Assembly (NCBI GenBank): GCA_035291665.1
Contig: DATDRP010000006.1
Location: 9,786-73,785 of the forward strand
From: Patescibacteria group bacterium
GTDB taxonomy: Bacteria > Patescibacteriota > Microgenomatia > UBA8517
Length of the DNA stretch: 64,000 nt
Direction of reading: 5' to 3'
Shown: piece after piece, positions 18,878 to 28,588 of the stretch
How the letters are laid out: each line of letters begins with the position of its first letter
Position numbering within the stretch: the first letter of the stretch is position 1
Position numbers and translations under genes: made by a program
Notes under the pieces: generated by a model
The model's input: the letters and a program-made list of their open reading frames with translations, nothing else
Told to the model about the DNA's origin: nothing
Database searches by the model: none

Positions 18878-19423
18878 GTGTCTGTAAATATTACATATTT
18901 TGTTCACGGAACCACCATAGATAACGAGAAGGATATATCCTCGGGTTGGTCGGATGCCGAACTTTCAAAATTAGGCAAAAAACAATCAAGAGAGTTGGTT
19001 GAAAAAATAACGAATATTAAATTTAATGTTATATTTTGTTCAGACCTCAAAAGAGCCGTTGACTCTGCAAATATCACCTTCGGTAGGAACGTTGAAATTA
19101 TTAGTGACGCGAGATTACGGGAATGTAATTATGGAGATCTTAACGGCATGCTTTCGAATGTAGTCGAACCGCTTCAGGAAGAAAATATTACAAAAAGATT
19201 TCCCAATGGTGAGAGTTATGAAGATGTTAAAGAAAGGATTCAGCATTTTTTGGAATTCTTAAAAAAGAATTATGATGGTAAACATATTGGGATTGTCGTC
19301 CACAAAGCACCTCAATTAGCTCTTGACGTTTTGCTAAAAGGAAAAACTTGGGAGCAAGCATTTGCAGAGGATTGGAGAAAGAATAAAGCCTGGCAACCAG
19401 GTTGGGATTATCTTCTCGAATAA
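18878..19423 (+). CDS. histidine phosphatase superfamily (PGAM/SixA-like) protein
   Basis: GTG start. YFVHGTTIDNE...GWSDAELSKLGKKQSREL resembles the RHGxT...G...QA motif. Moderate similarity only. Confidence 0.5.
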   Translation: MSVNITYFVHGTTIDNEKDISSGWSDAELSKLGKKQSRELVEKITNIKFNVIFCSDLKRAVDSANITFGRNVEIISDARLRECNYGDLNGMLSNVVEPLQEENITKRFPNGESYEDVKERIQHFLEFLKKNYDGKHIGIVVHKAPQLALDVLLKGKTWEQAFAEDWRKNKAWQPGWDYLLE

Positions 19424-19488
19424 TTTGCTATGGAACGTCTGACGTTCTCTGAGGAAGGTTTGACGTTCTTCAAACTAACTTTGAAGAG
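19424..19488. repeat. intergenic repeat A (tttgctatggaacgtctgacgttctctgaggaaggTTTGACGTTCTTCAAACTAActttgaagag)
   Basis: Begins immediately after the stop at 19423. The 5' 45 nt recur at 20719-20763 and the GTTCTTCAAA(T/C)TA(G/A) core recurs at 20806-20836, 21469-21490, 22078-22097 and 22747-22778. Confidence 0.7.
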
Positions 19489-19501: not shown

Positions 19502-20359
19502 TCAAGTTTTAAGCAATTTTCTTTTGGCGTCTTCAGCAAGTTGGTGGTACTCGTCAACGATTGGTGTAACCAATTCCAGTCCTGTATCGAGATCTATACT
19601 CGTGATTACACCTATTATTCCACCATCTTCTGTAACAACAGCGGCACCACTTGAACCACCCCCCGAATTCATTGTTGTCTTATAACACAAATTACCATCA
19701 TAATCTTTTGCATAAATATTTTCTGATAAATTAAACTTAAGCGGATTGATTCTGTCGTGTTTTTCAGCACTTCCTGCGAATGCGAGCGAGTACAATAGAT
19801 CATGTGAATTAGGTGTCCAATTATCTTTTATTGGAATTACAGGTAATTTGGTATCTTGAAGTATATTATTTAAACGAAAAGCTAACACTCCGATATCTTT
19901 TTTGTTGTGTGATGCGGTAACAAATTCATTTTTAGGAATTTCAATCAGTTTGCGATTTAGATGTGGTTGGAAAATATTAATATGTTCCGCATGTTTAAGT
20001 TCCTTTATAACATGCTTAGCCGATAAACACATTCCTATATTTGTTATCTTGTCCACTTCCATCAATGTGGTTGATCCAAATCCAATTAGAGTGTCATTTG
20101 TTATTAAATCCAGAACTCCTGCTGTTTCTATTATTTTTTCAGGTATCAGTAACATTTCTGGGATAGTGCCTACGGGGCGTGTAATGTCAGTTGCTTTTAC
20201 TGATGCTTCCGCTACATTTCTAAAATTGATCACATTCACCATATCAATAAATTTATTGACCATGTCACTAACCACATATGTAATAGCACCCCCATAGAGA
20301 ATTATTTTAATTGCGTTTTTTCTACCTATTGGATTGGTTTCTTTAGACATATCGGTCAT
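19502..20359 (-). CDS. trypsin-like (S1/HtrA-type) serine peptidase-like protein
   Basis: Possible catalytic triad context SAKHV...NKKDIGVLAF...MNSGGGSSGAAV (GNSGG-like, as in HtrA). Divergent, so the assignment is tentative. Confidence 0.4.
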   Translation of the reverse strand: MTDMSKETNPIGRKNAIKIILYGGAITYVVSDMVNKFIDMVNVINFRNVAEASVKATDITRPVGTIPEMLLIPEKIIETAGVLDLITNDTLIGFGSTTLMEVDKITNIGMCLSAKHVIKELKHAEHINIFQPHLNRKLIEIPKNEFVTASHNKKDIGVLAFRLNNILQDTKLPVIPIKDNWTPNSHDLLYSLAFAGSAEKHDRINPLKFNLSENIYAKDYDGNLCYKTTMNSGGGSSGAAVVTEDGGIIGVITSIDLDTGLELVTPIVDEYHQLAEDAKRKLLKT

Positions 20360-20388: not shown

Positions 20389-20718
20389 TTGTCTTCAGAT
20401 AAGCCTCTGAATCCTTCGACAAAACTTAAGCTCGTGATAAAATCATGTCTCATGAAAGAGCAATTATTAATATGTTCAGGAGAACATTGGGAAGGAAATG
20501 ATTTGATGGGGATAAGCATTCATATTAATAAGCTTGATGGGGATAATTTGGGAAACTTTGTGGGGTATATGAGTATAAAACCAATGGGTATAAATACGGC
20601 TGTTGAGATTGCTATGCGATCCTTAGAACAATGTGGTTATAAGACGCTAGCGATTAAGGATGGTAAATTAATTGATAGTGACGGACAAAAAATAAATGCA
20701 CCTTTTATAAAAAAATAA
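20389..20718 (+). CDS. hypothetical small protein (109 aa)
   Basis: Intact ORF immediately followed by repeat B. Confidence 0.3.
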   Translation: MSSDKPLNPSTKLKLVIKSCLMKEQLLICSGEHWEGNDLMGISIHINKLDGDNLGNFVGYMSIKPMGINTAVEIAMRSLEQCGYKTLAIKDGKLIDSDGQKINAPFIKK

Positions 20719-20836
20719 TTTGCTATGGAACGTCTGAAGTTCTCCGAGGGAAGTTTGACTGAGCCCAGTCAAACTGGGTTGTCGAGCTAGACTCGATCTG
20801 ACTTGGTTTGACGTTCTTCGAATTAACTCAAAGTCG
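20719..20836. repeat. intergenic repeat B (copy of A carrying a 46-nt insertion with hairpins cccagtcaaactggg and tcgagctagactcga)
   Basis: tttgctatggaacgtctgaagttctccgagggaagtttgac + insertion + ggtttgacgttcttcgaattaactcaaagtcg, compared directly with repeat A. Confidence 0.7.
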
Positions 20837-20839
20837 GTG

Positions 20840-21433
20840 TTATTTATGCATTTCTTTCTGCAAAACTTTGATTTCTGATATTAGTTTTTTAGAAAACGAT
20901 TTGGGGTATTTTTTTAGTAGCTCCAACTCGCCTGCATTCCTATTTGTTTTGGACATACCCCTTTTGTGTTTATCCTGAAACGCTTGCCATTTTTTGTATC
21001 CGCTTTCAGTTAAGTGCATTGACCCTGTACACTTTTTGCTTTTGCAGAAACATCGATGAGGGCAGGGATTGCAATTCATTTTTGGGGGAAGCAGATAGGA
21101 AATGGTTAACTCACTACCTTTCCTGATATTTTTTAAAGCAAAAACAACGGTGTGGTTTTTGTATTTTATAATCCAGCAGTTTGGGGAGCAGGAGTGGTTA
21201 AGAAGGTGTACTCCGGATATTTTTAAGTCGGGGTAAATACCCAACTCATCGTTGTAATACATTAAATAAAGTTCTCTCTTTTCTTTGTCAAAATCGAAAT
21301 CTAATAGCTGCACTAATTTACCCACATAATCACCGATGAGTGCTCCCTGTCTAATTGGTTTTCTGGCAAAAACACCCCTTCCTTTATTCTTAGTCTTTCT
21401 GATTTTCCAGAAACTAGCAGGTATTAAAAACAT
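20840..21433 (-). CDS. SET-domain protein-lysine methyltransferase-like protein with Cys-rich post-SET
   Basis: GRGVFARKPIRQGALIGDYVGKL...NHSCSPNCWI...LKNIRKGSELTISY, then CNPCPHRCFCKSKKC. These are the canonical SET motifs (NHSC, ELTxxY). Confidence 0.75.
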   Translation of the reverse strand: MFLIPASFWKIRKTKNKGRGVFARKPIRQGALIGDYVGKLVQLLDFDFDKEKRELYLMYYNDELGIYPDLKISGVHLLNHSCSPNCWIIKYKNHTVVFALKNIRKGSELTISYLLPPKMNCNPCPHRCFCKSKKCTGSMHLTESGYKKWQAFQDKHKRGMSKTNRNAGELELLKKYPKSFSKKLISEIKVLQKEMHK

Positions 21434-21468
21434 AAGTCAATTTAGCATACATTTTCAATTTTAGTTCT

Positions 21469-21506
21469 TGTTTGTCTTCAAATTAGCTCCGAAACCTTGT
21501 TATAAT
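21469..21506 (+). promoter_or_regulatory. repeat D (TGTCTTCAAATTAGCTCC) plus an extended -10 element TTGtTATAAT, 4 nt upstream of ATG (leaderless-type promoter)
   Basis: TGnTATAAT at 21497-21506 and ATG at 21510. The repeat core is shared with A, B, C and E. Confidence 0.45.
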
Positions 21507-21509
21507 TCC

Positions 21510-22076
21510 ATGATGAATACTAAAGAGATTTTTATTAAAGCAGGCGCTTTTCATAAAGGGCATGTTGAATTTAAAAACGGAATGCACGGTGATGGGTGGT
21601 TGCAAAAGGATTTGGTTGTAAAAAACCCTATATTCCTTGACGACGTAGCAAAACTTCAGGCAGAGAAAATACTGGAGAGTTATCCTAACGTAGATTTATT
21701 AATGGGACCGATAACTGGAGGGGCAATTATTGCAAGCCACGTCGCAAAATACATTCATAAAGAATTTGGTGTTATCTTGGGTAAACAAGACCCTGTACTA
21801 TTTCACGACATGAATATTCCAACCCCAGGAGATAAGGTTGTAATAGTTGAAGATATTATTTCTAGTGGCACTGATATGAAAAGGTATCTCAACTTTTTCA
21901 AAGAAAAGAATGTGGAAGTTGTCGGGGTAAGTACATGGCTTAATAGACAAGAAAATATATTTAATGGAGTGAAAGTAATCAGTTTGCTGGGAAATAATTT
22001 TAATCTTTTCCCAAAAGAGGAATGCCCTTTTTGTGCCAAAGGAGAAAAAATTGAATTTGTAAATGTTAGAGAATAA
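21510..22076 (+). CDS. type I phosphoribosyltransferase, orotate PRTase (PyrE)-like
   Basis: The PRPP-binding motif VVIVEDIISSGTDM and an N-terminal GAFHKGHVEFKNGMHGDGWL-like region are present. The track ORF starts at 21468, but its first 14 codons are the repeat and promoter, so the start is set at 21510. Confidence 0.6.
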   Translation: MMNTKEIFIKAGAFHKGHVEFKNGMHGDGWLQKDLVVKNPIFLDDVAKLQAEKILESYPNVDLLMGPITGGAIIASHVAKYIHKEFGVILGKQDPVLFHDMNIPTPGDKVVIVEDIISSGTDMKRYLNFFKEKNVEVVGVSTWLNRQENIFNGVKVISLLGNNFNLFPKEECPFCAKGEKIEFVNVRE

Positions 22077-22884: not shown

Positions 22885-23550
22885 ATGGCTTACGAATTAT
22901 CAGATGATTTTAAAAGCCTTAATAAAAATATTTGGTCGTCGAAACGTTTAACGAAATCAAATTGGAAAATTTCAAAGTACCAGGGGAAATCTGCAATTCA
23001 AATTACAGTGCACAAAGGTGATTATCAAATGGATGGTGGGGATGGTCATTTAACAGATAGAGCAGAATTAACAGAAGAAAAGTCTTTATGGGTACCGACC
23101 GGAACACCAATTTGGTATTCATTTTACTTTGTTTTTCCGAAAGATTTTTTAATTCAGGATAACAGACTTGTGTTTGCACAATGGAAGCAGTCAACCCAAG
23201 AACCGGAATCTCCATTTTTATCGTTCAGATATGTGGATGGTAAACTATATTTTCAGATTGTATACAATGATGAAAGAGAGAAATTTTATTGTACGGAAAA
23301 AGAGTGGCGTGGGAATTGGCACAACGCACTTGTTTATTACAAACTAGACTCAAATTTTCGGGGAGAAGTAAAAGCATGGGTGGATGAAAAAATAATTTCA
23401 GATTATTCAGGTAGATTGGGTTCCTCTCAATCTATATCCGATCCTTACTTCAAGATGGGATTATATAGAGATCAAATTGAGGAACATCAGACAATTTATC
23501 TTGCAGATTTTAAACGTAGCACTTCAAAAGAATTTTGTGAAAAAATATAA
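22885..23550 (+). CDS. concanavalin-like jelly-roll protein, polysaccharide lyase family 7 (alginate lyase)-like
   Basis: RAELTE ... FAQWKQ ... YFKMGLYRDQ echo the PL7 signature blocks R(S/T)EL(R), QIH and YFKAG(V/I)Y(N)Q. No signal peptide. Tentative. Confidence 0.4.
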   Translation: MAYELSDDFKSLNKNIWSSKRLTKSNWKISKYQGKSAIQITVHKGDYQMDGGDGHLTDRAELTEEKSLWVPTGTPIWYSFYFVFPKDFLIQDNRLVFAQWKQSTQEPESPFLSFRYVDGKLYFQIVYNDEREKFYCTEKEWRGNWHNALVYYKLDSNFRGEVKAWVDEKIISDYSGRLGSSQSISDPYFKMGLYRDQIEEHQTIYLADFKRSTSKEFCEKI

Positions 23551-23571: not shown

Positions 23572-23613
23572 GCGTTCAAGAAAACCCCGCCCTTTAGGGG
23601 TGGGGGATGTCAT
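23572..23613. repeat. partial palindromic element (gcgttcaagaaaaccccgccctttaggggtggggGATGTCAT)
   Basis: Shares gcgttcaagaaaac with 5322-5335, the aaccccgccc...gggg hairpin with 27852-27875, and ends in the GGATGTCAT half-site. It sits in a convergent intergenic gap. Confidence 0.55.
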
Positions 23614-23618
23614 AAATG

Positions 23619-24329
23619 TTAGTATTTCTGTGCCCTGACGATTAATGTTGCTCCGAGTGTGGGGAATAAACCTGTCAACAGTTTTGAAAACAGATGCATC
23701 CTCCGATTGCCAAACTCGATTGTGATTGCTTGCGTACGAAGTTTTATATTATTAAACCCGCACAAAATTAACGCATTTTTTAAAGAATCAAATGTGAACG
23801 GTCGTATATGTAGATATAAAAACGGATGAATCGGGGTGGTGTGGCGAGGTGACTTTCCGAATAAAAACTTTATTCTATCATCGACCCTTGCAAGATTTGG
23901 AGTTGTAAGTATTAAATATCCTTTCGATTTAAGAACACGATTTATTTCGTTGAGAAACTTTTTTGTATCGATTAGATGCTCAATTATTTCTCCTGCAAAA
24001 ACAAAATCGAAACTTGCGTCATGATATGGAAGAGTTTTGGAAACATCGCCAAATTTTGTGATTACTCCTCGTTTTTCGGCTTCTTTTAAGGCATCTTTTG
24101 CGCCGTCAATACCATAAACTTTAAGTCCGAGTTTTTTTATTATTTTTTCTTCGTATAATCCAATTGAACAGGCAATGCTTAAAAGCCTTTGCGGTTTTTT
24201 GTTGTTTACAACTTCTTTTATTAAATCAATTGCGATGTCTCCTCGTTTTTGATGAGTCTCACTAAAGAGATATTCTGTCTCTTCCTTTTTGTTATATTCG
24301 TGGGTGTTGTAATCAAAAAGAGTATCCAC
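23619..24329 (-). CDS. class I SAM-dependent methyltransferase (type 11-like)
   Basis: LLSIACSIGLYEEKI (motif I region), FDFVFAGEIIEHL, VLKSKGYLILTTPN. Confidence 0.75.
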   Translation of the reverse strand: MDTLFDYNTHEYNKKEETEYLFSETHQKRGDIAIDLIKEVVNNKKPQRLLSIACSIGLYEEKIIKKLGLKVYGIDGAKDALKEAEKRGVITKFGDVSKTLPYHDASFDFVFAGEIIEHLIDTKKFLNEINRVLKSKGYLILTTPNLARVDDRIKFLFGKSPRHTTPIHPFLYLHIRPFTFDSLKNALILCGFNNIKLRTQAITIEFGNRRMHLFSKLLTGLFPTLGATLIVRAQKY

Positions 24330-26288: not shown

Positions 26289-26984
26289 ATGAAAACTCTT
26301 TACTCCGGTGAACAGGCAAATAAGTATACTAAATTTGCAGATAAATCTTACAGCTGGAAGTTTTTGGAAAAACCTACTATAACAAGAAATTTGAAGTCGA
26401 TAATTAATGGTAACATACACACCTTGGATGCCGGTTGCGGAACAGGGCGATCCATTAGAGTCCTCCTTGAACTGGGAGCAAATCCAATAAAAACCATTGG
26501 AACTGATATAAGCCCACATATGTTAAAGATTGCACGAAAATCTTTTCCTGAAGTGAAGTTTGTCAAGGGAAATTTACCCGATTTAAAATTGAACAAAAAT
26601 AGTTTGGAGCTTGTTTCGAGCAATATGGCTTTTCATTATTTAAATCTTAGTGATTTTAAAACAACAGTAGAACATATCCATACTTGGTTACTAAAGGGTG
26701 GCTATTTATTTTATATAGTTGTACATCCATTAAGGTTTATTCACAACCATTCGCAATATTTTAGTGATAAATCAAAAGTAGAAAAGACACCCTGGGGTAC
26801 AGAAATAAAATACTATCCAAAGAGAATTTCTGATTACGTGAATACGACATTAGATTCAGGTTTTGATGTAATAAAAGTTGAAGAGCCGATACCTGTTGGC
26901 GGGGTTGCAAAAAAAGATATTGCCCAATATAAAAAATATTTGAGTAACCCCACCCGTTTGGCAATATTGGCCGTAAAAAAGTGA
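26289..26984 (+). CDS. class I SAM-dependent methyltransferase
   Basis: LDAGCGTGRSIRVLLELGA (motif I), FVKGNLPDLKL, LLKGGYLFYIV. Confidence 0.75.
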   Translation: MKTLYSGEQANKYTKFADKSYSWKFLEKPTITRNLKSIINGNIHTLDAGCGTGRSIRVLLELGANPIKTIGTDISPHMLKIARKSFPEVKFVKGNLPDLKLNKNSLELVSSNMAFHYLNLSDFKTTVEHIHTWLLKGGYLFYIVVHPLRFIHNHSQYFSDKSKVEKTPWGTEIKYYPKRISDYVNTTLDSGFDVIKVEEPIPVGGVAKKDIAQYKKYLSNPTRLAILAVKK

Positions 26985-26998
26985 AAAAACACTCCCCG

Positions 26999-28588
26999 CT
27001 AAACAGGATTAGTTAGGGTGTATTTATCTCTTATTGCTTGGGTGTCAACATCTTTTATATCTTTATACTGCAGATACTCCAATAAATTGAAACCACGGAT
27101 GTCGGGATTTTTGTATTTGTTTTGCAGATATTCAATTTTAAAGAGTAAGATCCATAAACCATCAGATTCGGCTTGTTTTTTCTCCGTTTCGGTTACCGGA
27201 CCGGAAGATCTGACAATCTCATTCAGATGAGTTTTATACGAAAGTGAATCGCTCGAAAGTCTTGAAAGATATTGCATGTCAACTCCTTGACCGGTTGTTG
27301 CCCGGTGGAAATGGTAAATAAGGTAATCAAAATTTGCCAAATTGATAAGAATTAAAATTAATCCCGTATAGATTACGGACTTGGTAAGAAAGTATTTTTT
27401 CTCAATATTTTTCAGGAATGTATATAAATAAATTGTGAATATCCCCAAAATCCAGGTTGCAACTGCGAATCCGTAAAGTCTTTTATAAGTAAAACCCCAG
27501 GCGCTTGAATATTCATAAACACTTTTGTATGCCATGAATGCGAGAAAAATTCCTTCAACAAGAAGGACAAGCGCCAGTTTTTGATTATACTTTTTCTTTT
27601 CTTTGTCGGCGTAGAGAAGTGCCAAAACAATTACTGCAACAATGGAGAGCTGGGTAAATACTTCATTCGCATAATTTGAATAAGTATATCCAAGAGCGCT
27701 TAGGGTTTCTTGAGATGAAAAATATAGCTGGAATTGGGTAATGAAAAAAATTAGAAGTACTGCCGAAACCGCGATTTTGGGTATTAATAAGTTTAAGCCT
27801 AGTCTATTAGTAATCTTAAAACCTTCTTTTTTATTCATAGCAATTTCAAGGAAACCCCGCCCTTGGCGGGGAGGAATTGAACTTGATATGTCATCCTCCT
27901 TCAGAGGGAACCACGGACCGTGGTCCGTGGAGGATGTCATGAAAGTTGCTACCCTGGGTATTAAGAAGGCTGAACCTATAAAAAAGATTAATCTGATAAT
28001 CCACTGAAATATAGCCTCAGTTAATTTGATATTTCCCAAACCTATTAAATCGGCAACCTCAAGTAAAAGTTTTTCAAAGAATGGATTGGCGGATGCAAGA
28101 AGCGGCAGGATTACGGCCAAAATCGCCAATGTGATAAGGGTGATGGCGATTGTGTTAATTGTGCTTTCGCGCTTTCTTTCATTAGCAACAGGTTTCTTGA
28201 ATTCCAATTGATATTCATTTCGTATGAATACACTTTGCAGGAAAAGTATTAAGGGTGCAAAAATTAATGATAATATACTTTCCGGATCCTCCTTTTTAGT
28301 CAGGACAAAAAGAATACCGAAGTAAAAAATTGCGAGGAGATTAAGCATTATTACCGACGGCTCACTTCGGATCGTTAGTGCGATCGATAATATTAATGCG
28401 ATCGCGAAAAATGCTGTGGTGTCCGGGGTTTTGTCGTTTTTTATATAGAAAGCAAGGAAGGCAAATGAGATTAACGAAATTGAGAGGCCTAGATGGGGGA
28501 AGAATCCGAATGGAATTGATAACAAAGAAAAGGCGGCGCACGCGAAAATAATTAAAGCGGATATCTTACCCTTTTGAGTCAATTGCAT
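26999..28588 (-). CDS. polytopic membrane protein (529 aa), function unknown; carries an in-frame palindromic-element insertion
   Basis: More than 12 hydrophobic helices. The hydrophilic loop FMTSSTDHGPWFPLKEDDISSSIPPRQGRGFLEIAMNKK is encoded entirely by the repeat element at 27850-27940, and the reading frame is preserved. Confidence 0.5.
   Translation of the reverse strand: MQLTQKGKISALIIFACAAFSLLSIPFGFFPHLGLSISLISFAFLAFYIKNDKTPDTTAFFAIALILSIALTIRSEPSVIMLNLLAIFYFGILFVLTKKEDPESILSLIFAPLILFLQSVFIRNEYQLEFKKPVANERKRESTINTIAITLITLAILAVILPLLASANPFFEKLLLEVADLIGLGNIKLTEAIFQWIIRLIFFIGSAFLIPRVATFMTSSTDHGPWFPLKEDDISSSIPPRQGRGFLEIAMNKKEGFKITNRLGLNLLIPKIAVSAVLLIFFITQFQLYFSSQETLSALGYTYSNYANEVFTQLSIVAVIVLALLYADKEKKKYNQKLALVLLVEGIFLAFMAYKSVYEYSSAWGFTYKRLYGFAVATWILGIFTIYLYTFLKNIEKKYFLTKSVIYTGLILILINLANFDYLIYHFHRATTGQGVDMQYLSRLSSDSLSYKTHLNEIVRSSGPVTETEKKQAESDGLWILLFKIEYLQNKYKNPDIRGFNLLEYLQYKDIKDVDTQAIRDKYTLTNPV
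27850..27940. repeat. palindromic repeat element, copy 3 (module aaccccgccc...ggcgggg plus ATGTCATCCTCC...GGAGGATGTCAT) inside a CDS
   Basis: ATGTCATCCTCC at 27888-27899, inner hairpin cacggacc/ggtccgtg, GGAGGATGTCAT at 27929-27940, and ggaaaccccgcccttggcggggagga at 27850-27875. Confidence 0.75.

Follow-up and report, generated by a model that had tools for sequence, protein, structure and literature searches.

A predicted SET-domain protein methyltransferase with a family-specific C-terminal tail in Patescibacteria

Introduction

Compact SET-domain proteins of prokaryotes are exemplified by Go1-SET of Methanosarcina mazei and cpnSET of Chlamydia pneumoniae, which modify chromatin proteins of their own cells: Go1-SET methylates MC1-alpha and cpnSET methylates Hc1 (PMC3980110). 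SET nucleomodulins, such as RomA/LegAS4, NUE, BtSET and BaSET, are secreted, carry secretion signals, ankyrin repeats or a nuclear localization signal and act on host histones (PMC3980110). BurB, a methionine S-methyltransferase of Burkholderia with a SET fold, takes free methionine as its substrate; a post-SET zinc module has not been described for it (PMC12542666). Here we consider a SET-domain gene located at positions 20840-21433 of a 64,000-nucleotide stretch (below, the window) of contig DATDRP010000006.1 from a Patescibacteria group bacterium. Its product is probably a small, basic, cytoplasmic methyltransferase that uses S-adenosylmethionine (SAM), belongs to a clade of SET proteins from Patescibacteria and modifies a lysine of an endogenous protein.

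So far bacterial SET methyltransferases have been studied almost only as effectors injected by pathogens and rewriting host histones. The family described here offers a clean case for asking what SET proteins do in bacteria that never meet eukaryotes. In the literature searched we found no paper joining SET domains with Patescibacteria, the candidate phyla radiation (CPR), Microgenomates or Woesebacteria.

SET domain and catalytic residues

The gene is complete within the window:

20840..21433, minus strand: coding sequence of the SET-domain protein, taken from the list of open reading frames (ATG start, 197 aa; TAA stop at 20840-20842)

A public protein (P0001), named 'SET domain-containing protein [Patescibacteria group bacterium]', is 100% identical to its product and encoded on a 606-kb contig, and the gene boundaries agree with gene calls on public contigs. 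The ATG start is supported by homologs, since they have the same N-terminus, MFLI... The gene has thus already been annotated automatically as encoding a SET-domain protein; proteins of this kind are well known, and its description is not the discovery of a new system. Three public contigs (L001-L003) show no difference from the window (100% identity) along stretches of up to 12.6 kb, and a short fourth contig is 99.9% identical to it; all four represent the same genome sampled again, so that L001-L003 are uninformative on strain-level variability.

A Pfam scan of the 197-aa protein recovered a single SET domain (PF00856; 68.1 bits at a gathering cut-off of 22.4, E=1e-18), covering residues 18-113 and profile positions 1-104 of 105, and no second Pfam domain. 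An earlier note on this DNA, made from its letters without database searches, had proposed a bacterial SET-domain protein and named failure of profile searches as the outcome that would speak against it; given this significant match, such a failure did not occur. The motifs it had listed, GxG, NHSCSPNC, ELTISY and CNPCPHRCFCKSKKC (residues 121-135), are all present in the translation, which was checked by hand. In a phmmer search of PDB sequences the protein matched MLL1 over SET and post-SET at E~1e-13, the alignment extending through CxCx4C, and a profile built from 18 homologs reached E=1e-19. The matches include MLL1, NSD and SETD2 and take in the post-SET region. The catalytic part of the protein comprises the following elements:

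21083..21409, minus strand: SET catalytic core, residues 9-117, beta-rich fold
21374..21382, minus strand: GxG motif, G18-R-G20, the expected SAM-binding loop, aligned with GRG of MLL1
21176..21199, minus strand: NHSCSPNC, residues 79-86, SAM-binding/pseudoknot motif, aligned with NHSCEPNC of MLL1
21095..21112, minus strand: ELTISY, residues 108-113, with catalytic Tyr113, aligned with ELTYDY of MLL1

Conservation was estimated in an alignment of 191 non-redundant homologs, composed of the 120 best database matches and open reading frames from 76 named-genome loci; the residue percentages given below refer to this set. Both glycines of the GxG motif, G18 and G20, whose role in SAM binding follows from established SET-domain structures, are kept in 99% of the sequences. 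N79, H80, C82 and N85 are conserved at 100%, as is Y113, and E108 reaches 98%. The position of the Phe/Tyr switch, two residues before the catalytic tyrosine, is occupied not by Phe or Tyr but by Ile (170/191) or Val (15/191); we take I111 and Y113 to be the counterparts of Y3942 and Y3944 in MLL1. Residues conserved at 95-100% are G18, G20, F22, D35, Y36, G38, M58, D62, P68 and L77 in the first part of the core, N79, H80, S81, C82, P84, N85, F98, I103, E108, T110, Y113 and P117 further along it, and C124, H126, C128, C130, C135, H140, W149 and P177 in the post-SET region and the tail. The range of 98-100% holds for G18, G20, Y36, N79, H80, C82, N85, E108, Y113, C128, C130 and C135. Judged by this conservation, strong purifying selection has kept every catalytic motif intact (GxG, Y36, NHSCxPN, ELxxxY with Tyr113, and the Cys4 post-SET). 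The gene is real and codes for a predicted SET-domain protein methyltransferase that is apparently active. A catalytically dead SET-fold module, kept for binding or as a structural part like some PR/SET pseudo-enzymes, might be thought of in view of a secondary match to the PRDM2 PR-domain model found in relatives. This match is weak, at or below the cut-off, and conservation of the SAM-binding and catalytic residues at the level just given is unexpected for a pseudo-enzyme, which makes this explanation highly improbable.

With the alignment of 120 homologs AlphaFold2 predicted the full chain at a mean predicted local distance difference test (pLDDT) value of 89.8 and a predicted template modelling score (pTM) of 0.87, while with only 18 sequences the pLDDT was 77.7. 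The predicted fold is that of SET proteins, defined by small beta-sheets arranged around a pseudoknot, and Foldseek is in agreement. Solved structures align to at most ~136 of the 197 residues.

With a pI of 9.8 and a net charge of +23 the protein is basic, and its N-terminus lacks a hydrophobic segment (12-residue hydropathy at most 1.0). These two features suggest that it most likely stays in the cytoplasm and may bind to nucleic acid or its complexes. As an alternative, an episymbiotic CPR cell might pass the enzyme on to the bacterium or archaeon on which it lives and methylate proteins there, with archaeal histones or nucleoid proteins as possible targets, by analogy with NUE of Chlamydia and RomA/LegAS4 of Legionella. 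Such a secreted effector is, in our estimate, unlikely. A signal peptide or N-terminal extension is absent, since the SET fold starts at about residue 9; the NCBIfam model for LegAS4/AnkI (NF043024) scored only 19.6 bits at a cut-off of 550, over a 33-residue stretch (residues 15-47). Neither ankyrin or targeting domains nor linked secretion genes were found, and the nearest relatives of the family live in free-living bacteria.

Post-SET region and C-terminal tail

Behind the catalytic core two further elements were distinguished:

21014..21073, minus strand: extended post-SET, residues 121-140, CxxCxHxCxCxxxxCxxxxH, with the triad C128/C130/C135 and additional C121, C124, H126 and H140
20843..21013, minus strand: family-specific C-terminal tail, residues 141-197, delimited by conservation and pLDDT

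C128, C130 and C135 are conserved at 99% and align with the CxCx4C of MLL1 (CNCGAKKC). Together with C82 they match the MLL1 motifs NHSC and CNCGAKKC residue for residue, all four being conserved at 99-100%. By this alignment C82, C128, C130 and C135 correspond to the canonical post-SET zinc ligands, with C82 as the fourth one. The intact post-SET module also bears on the idea that this is a small-molecule or non-lysine methyltransferase on a SET fold, for instance a methionine S-methyltransferase similar to BurB or a histidine methyltransferase similar to SETD3. Lysine methyltransferases match the protein better than BurB does, and we find such a substrate quite unlikely.

The additional C121, C124, H126 and H140 are conserved at 92-96%, and the complete nine-site Cys/His pattern is found in 154 of the 191 sequences. 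Members L082-L089, which diverge most and include Gribaldobacteria, have these four residues replaced jointly and keep the canonical four. Since they are lost together, as one unit, the data suggest that C121, C124, H126 and H140 form a predicted second structural zinc site.

The tail begins with an amphipathic helix (residues 143-155, with Y146, W149 and F152), continues with a basic, poorly predicted linker (156-169) and the LxxLxxYPK motif (170-178), and ends with a terminal helix (182-195). Y146, F152, L170, L173 and Y176 are conserved at 90% or more; W149 is invariant, and so, essentially, is the pair Y176-P177. Across residues 171-190 the pLDDT is 92-96. Combined with the overall pTM, these values indicate a docked tail: packing of the ~55-aa segment on the catalytic core is a prediction of high confidence.

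The census of the tail was made with hidden Markov models, as regular expressions proved too strict. A model of the tail alone matched 83 of the 150 best cluster representatives, all of them within the score range of the family, and gave no match in any full-length protein outside the family. Comparison of the tail with Pfam and PDB sequences gave no significant match. On the basis of these profiles the conserved tail is a synapomorphy of the family.

Many relatives, mostly of the Parcubacteria type, are longer (~245 aa) and bear a further C-terminal module of ~50 aa with the motif IRxSGRxLxF, in extended form ...LPxxxEIRxxIRxSGRxLxFxxLxxxIxG... (examples are L069, L079-L089, among them L085:5001-5729 on the plus strand, and P0084). 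This module, too, had no significant counterpart among Pfam and PDB sequences. Its SGR core superficially resembles the N-termini of histones H4/H2A. In the tree the ~195-aa form of Microgenomates is nested within the long form, which suggests that the short form found in the window is probably a truncation of a longer ancestral one. The additional Cys/His ligands, the tail and the module of the long form seem not to have been described before.

Distribution and relationships of the family

Among 1.84 billion representatives clustered at 50% identity the search detected 3070 SET-like proteins at E<=1e-3, 181 at E<=1e-10 and 41 at E<=1e-30. When one genome of each GTDB species was scanned with a pattern, 98 encoded relatives turned up among 185,579 species, mostly in Microgenomates, so that the word 'sporadic', used in the earlier note for SET proteins in bacteria, is fair. 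Named carriers from Microgenomates are Woese-, Curtiss-, Davies-, Roizman-, Levy- and Gottesmanbacteria; beyond them there are a few Parcubacteria (Jorgensen-, Gribaldobacteria, Paceibacteria) and one member of Saccharibacteria. The closest named relatives, at 73% identity, belong to Candidatus Woesebacteria. CP011214.1, a complete genome of 819 kb, also carries the family, which is thus retained at very small genome size. Many records of carriers (among L012-L088) are titled 'uncultured Gammaproteobacteria ... binchicken/SRP...', one (L013) is assigned to Desulfobacteraceae and one (P0116) to Candidatus Nitrosocosmicus. Placeholder naming or mis-binning of contigs probably explains such titles, and taxonomic counts based on them are therefore unreliable.

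Just outside the family the matches are of two sorts: eukaryotic multidomain proteins (a trypanosome SET protein, plant ASHH3/4, SETD2) and small SET-only proteins of 137-200 aa. With the core profile of the family, compact bacterial SET proteins score 85-108 bits versus 28-83 bits for those of eukaryotic type. The best of the small proteins has homologs with the name 'SET domain-containing protein-lysine N-methyltransferase', which come from Rhodothermia, Gemmatimonadaceae, Acidobacteriota (Terracidiphilus), Polyangiaceae and Steroidobacteraceae. In a neighbour-joining tree of 74 core sequences the CPR family forms one group beside the bacterial compact SET proteins, and sequences of eukaryotic type are found elsewhere. 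Provisionally, this placement defines a CPR-specific, undescribed branch of the compact SET proteins of ordinary, free-living bacteria. It also agrees with the literature, where a recent import of bacterial SET genes from eukaryotes is not accepted (PMC3980110).

The earlier note had presented SET-domain lysine methyltransferases as a hallmark of eukaryotic chromatin and proposed phylogenetic placement as a check. In the light of this check such framing misleads, because the nearest proteins are compact SET proteins of free-living bacteria and the eukaryotic ones are more distant. Recent horizontal transfer from a eukaryote, or delivery on a mobile island bounded by repeats, may seem attractive since the best solved-structure matches are eukaryotic SET1/MLL and NSD enzymes; most SET proteins in the PDB, however, are eukaryotic ones. 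Eukaryotic proteins share only ~25-31% identity with the window protein, restricted to the core, the compact bacterial proteins both score higher and neighbour the CPR clade in the tree, and the family tail is missing from all outgroups. No relatives were found in IMG/VR viral contigs and GenBank phages, and on plasmids there are only generic SET genes with ~30% identity, on megaplasmids of Burkholderiaceae. Based on this data, transfer of either sort has very little chance of being correct; the evidence from repeats and gene context is given below.

Genomic neighbourhood of the SET gene

The SET gene is monocistronic. It is divergent from a phosphoribosyltransferase gene and convergent with a 109-aa open reading frame, being separated from them by two spacers:

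21434..21509, no strand: divergent intergenic region between the SET and phosphoribosyltransferase genes, presumed to hold both promoters
20719..20839, no strand: convergent spacer 3' of the SET gene and the 109-aa open reading frame, strongly structured, with the repeat copy 20714-20759

In the divergent region promoter-like matches were found on the minus strand at 21458..21429 (9/12) and on the plus strand at 21477..21506 (10/12, TG-extended). The number of such matches equals that in shuffled sequences (8 found vs 8.0 expected), which is weak evidence for promoters. The TG-extended TATAAT box (21501-21506) ends 3 nt upstream of the ATG of the phosphoribosyltransferase gene at 21510, a second ATG being located at 21513; this suggests a leaderless mRNA. 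The TTG at 21468, taken mechanically as the start of this reading frame, is probably too far upstream, because public gene calls give products of 187-188 aa.

For the convergent spacer the predicted folding energy on the plus strand is -42 kcal/mol (z -3.1; 0/200 shuffles as stable), and z is -2.1 on the minus strand. A consensus scan of this spacer revealed no T-run terminator. It is a probable shared 3'-end/terminator region.

The sole local repeat pair is a direct repeat of 46 nt, whose copies (19419-19464 and 20714-20759) have 91% identity. Only the protease-like gene and the 109-aa open reading frame are enclosed by it; the SET gene is left outside. Thus the SET gene, placed by the earlier note inside a variable segment delimited by repeats, in fact lies 80 nt beyond the second copy. 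Each copy follows directly the stop codon of a plus-strand gene, in a convergent spacer; both have a common outer stem, GGAACGUC/GACGUUC, and the second contains ~60 nt of extra hairpins inserted. Both spacers bearing the repeat fold better than shuffled sequences (plus strand z -2.8 and -3.1). Rfam has no match to the 46-nt repeat and recognizes only a tRNA in the window. Location and folding indicate that this repeat could be a lineage-specific terminator or an element of the 3' untranslated region. A second repeat is palindromic, with the unit ATGTCATCCTCC - GC-rich hairpin - GGAGGATGTCAT, and is represented by copies at 58-110, 5375-5425 and 27888-27940 and by an incomplete one at 23579-23613. 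Its 12-mer has 11 matches at no more than 2 mismatches vs 3.8 expected, a number reached by 0/100 shuffles. It looks like a scattered intergenic element of the repetitive extragenic palindromic (REP) type. The copy at 27888-27940 lies, oddly, within a 529-aa DUF4153 reading frame (26999-28588, minus strand).

The adjacent protease-like gene mentioned in the earlier note does exist between the copies of the 46-nt repeat (19502-20359, minus strand). It encodes a trypsin-like protein of 285 aa with an N-terminal hydrophobic segment; Trypsin_2 gives 24.7 bits, below the cut-off, and the motifs SAKH / DIGVL / GGSSGA resemble a His/Asp/Ser triad. The 109-aa reading frame (20389-20718, plus strand), divergent from it, belongs to no known family. 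Homologs of these two genes were not found in the 5 kb around any of the 85 SET homologs compared. PADLOC gave no match for the SET protein and just weak matches to protease domains for the protease-like neighbour, and membership of the SET protein in an anti-phage defence system was rejected for want of such a match.

Genes in the surrounding 30 kb are ordinary and include GroEL, a solute-binding protein, an HhH-GPD glycosylase, NUDIX, an M23 peptidase, HSP20, glycosyltransferases and ABC-F. The genes at 22885-23550 (plus strand), 23619-24329 (minus strand) and 26289-26984 (plus strand) include one for a protein of the polysaccharide-lyase family PF14099 (E=5e-23), and two genes of class-I SAM methyltransferases flank those of Zip and a VTT-domain membrane protein. 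The GC content is flat around the SET gene (0.35-0.41; 0.36 in the gene itself), and the first 30 kb of the window are free of integrase and transposase genes. The patchy distribution of the family and the presence of repeats near the gene could favour the transfer discussed above, but the GC content resembles that of the surroundings, integrase and transposase genes are absent within 30 kb, and the gene lies outside the 46-nt pair. The hypothesis of a mobile island was rejected on the same grounds, that is no GC shift, no integrase or transposase (1-30 kb), and repeats that are either scattered palindromes or terminator-like.

The co-varying partner for which the earlier note had suggested a search among neighbouring genes did not emerge from tblastn comparison of 11 window neighbours with the regions within 5 kb of the 85 SET homologs. 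One locus (L065) is an exception: Zip transporter (85% identity) and histidine phosphatase (78%) genes flank the SET gene there, with different genes between them. Relative to the window, four genes between Zip and SET are absent from L065. Pfam annotation around the gene at three loci gave unrelated neighbours, which in two Woesebacteria relatives (63% and 53% identity) include toxin-antitoxin pairs. The SET gene is thus a conserved element in a locally plastic neighbourhood, without a conserved partner.

Discussion

For the lysine methyltransferase favoured here the following mechanism can be proposed. SAM would bind in the GxG/NHSC pocket, and the methyl group would be passed to the epsilon-amine of a substrate lysine threaded through a channel lined by Y36 and Y113. 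In the light of established SET enzymology, the Ile or Val at the switch position argues for a roomy lysine pocket and multiple methylation; Ile111 instead of Tyr may leave room for di- or tri-methylation. The canonical zinc is expected to stabilise the post-SET region, and the putative second structural zinc (C121, C124, H126, H140) probably rigidifies it. The tail, with its aromatic helix and YPK motif, may complete or gate the substrate groove and supply specificity.

The target would be endogenous and probably associated with nucleic acid (nucleoid or ribosomal/translation proteins), rather than a eukaryotic histone. By analogy with Go1-SET and cpnSET, the likeliest candidate would be a protein of the cell's own nucleoid or one associated with its ribosomes. 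One can go further and imagine that the tail-bearing enzyme with two presumed metal sites forms a dedicated lysine-methylation system, retained in some of the smallest bacterial genomes known. It would set a minimal 'chromatin-like' or translational mark on the cell's own nucleoid or ribosome or, once transferred, modify proteins of the bacterial or archaeal host, with the tail and the long-form module as a recognition or auto-inhibitory device without parallel in other SET enzymes; this extended version we consider unlikely.

Several points weigh against an endogenous lysine methyltransferase with these added elements. SET folds can take other substrates, as BurB does with free methionine. 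The family is lineage-restricted yet patchy, and with carriers in so small a share of the species scanned (98/185,579) it does not represent a core CPR function. The bootstrap of the CPR clade is only 59/100 in a simple neighbour-joining tree, so the placement is provisional. Synteny is uninformative, as 0/11 neighbours are conserved beside the 85 homologs apart from L065. Both the putative second zinc site and the placement of the tail with respect to the lysine channel are predictions based on conservation, co-loss and pLDDT. Finally, Lys178 of the YPK motif is conserved at just 79%, and given this value a conserved pseudo-substrate lysine at K178 is unlikely.

The enzyme belongs to an ordinary class, but its host is unusual and awkward for experiments. 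It stands alone, has all its catalytic residues and is retained in some genomes of just 0.6-0.8 Mb. Its family-specific additions, the probable second zinc site and the conserved tail, should dictate recognition, and the identity of the substrate would reveal what lysine methylation does in a minimal, host-dependent bacterium.

Comparison with known systems

The compact SET proteins of bacteria and archaea, Go1-SET of M. mazei and cpnSET of C. pneumoniae among them, are the closest to the CPR family both by the core profile and in the neighbour-joining tree. They likewise consist of one SET domain and a CxCx4C post-SET, are of similar size (~140-200 aa) and often have a basic C-terminus. Unlike them, the CPR family adds four conserved Cys/His ligands around the canonical triad and the ~55-aa tail with the W149/F152 helix and LxxLxxYPK, supplemented in the long form by the ~50-aa module, and has Ile instead of Phe/Tyr as the switch residue.

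The secreted effectors, that is RomA/LegAS4 of Legionella, NUE of Chlamydia, BtSET of Burkholderia and BaSET of Bacillus, differ in that none of their effector features is found in the window protein, secretion signals being examined as hydrophobic N-terminal segments. From BurB it differs in keeping the lysine-methyltransferase signature and in matching lysine methyltransferases more closely.

Eukaryotic SET1/MLL (KMT2) and SET2/NSD/ASH1 (KMT3) enzymes, at only 24-30% identity, are more distant than the bacterial compact SET proteins. The CPR protein is not multidomain, and flanking AWS/pre-SET, N-SET and WRAD-interaction regions are missing from it; Ile takes the position of Y3942 in MLL1, and the CPR tail is absent from KMT2 and KMT3. 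With Ile111, a single domain in 197 aa and clustering with the bacterial compact SET proteins, it stands apart from the eukaryotic SET1/MLL subfamily.

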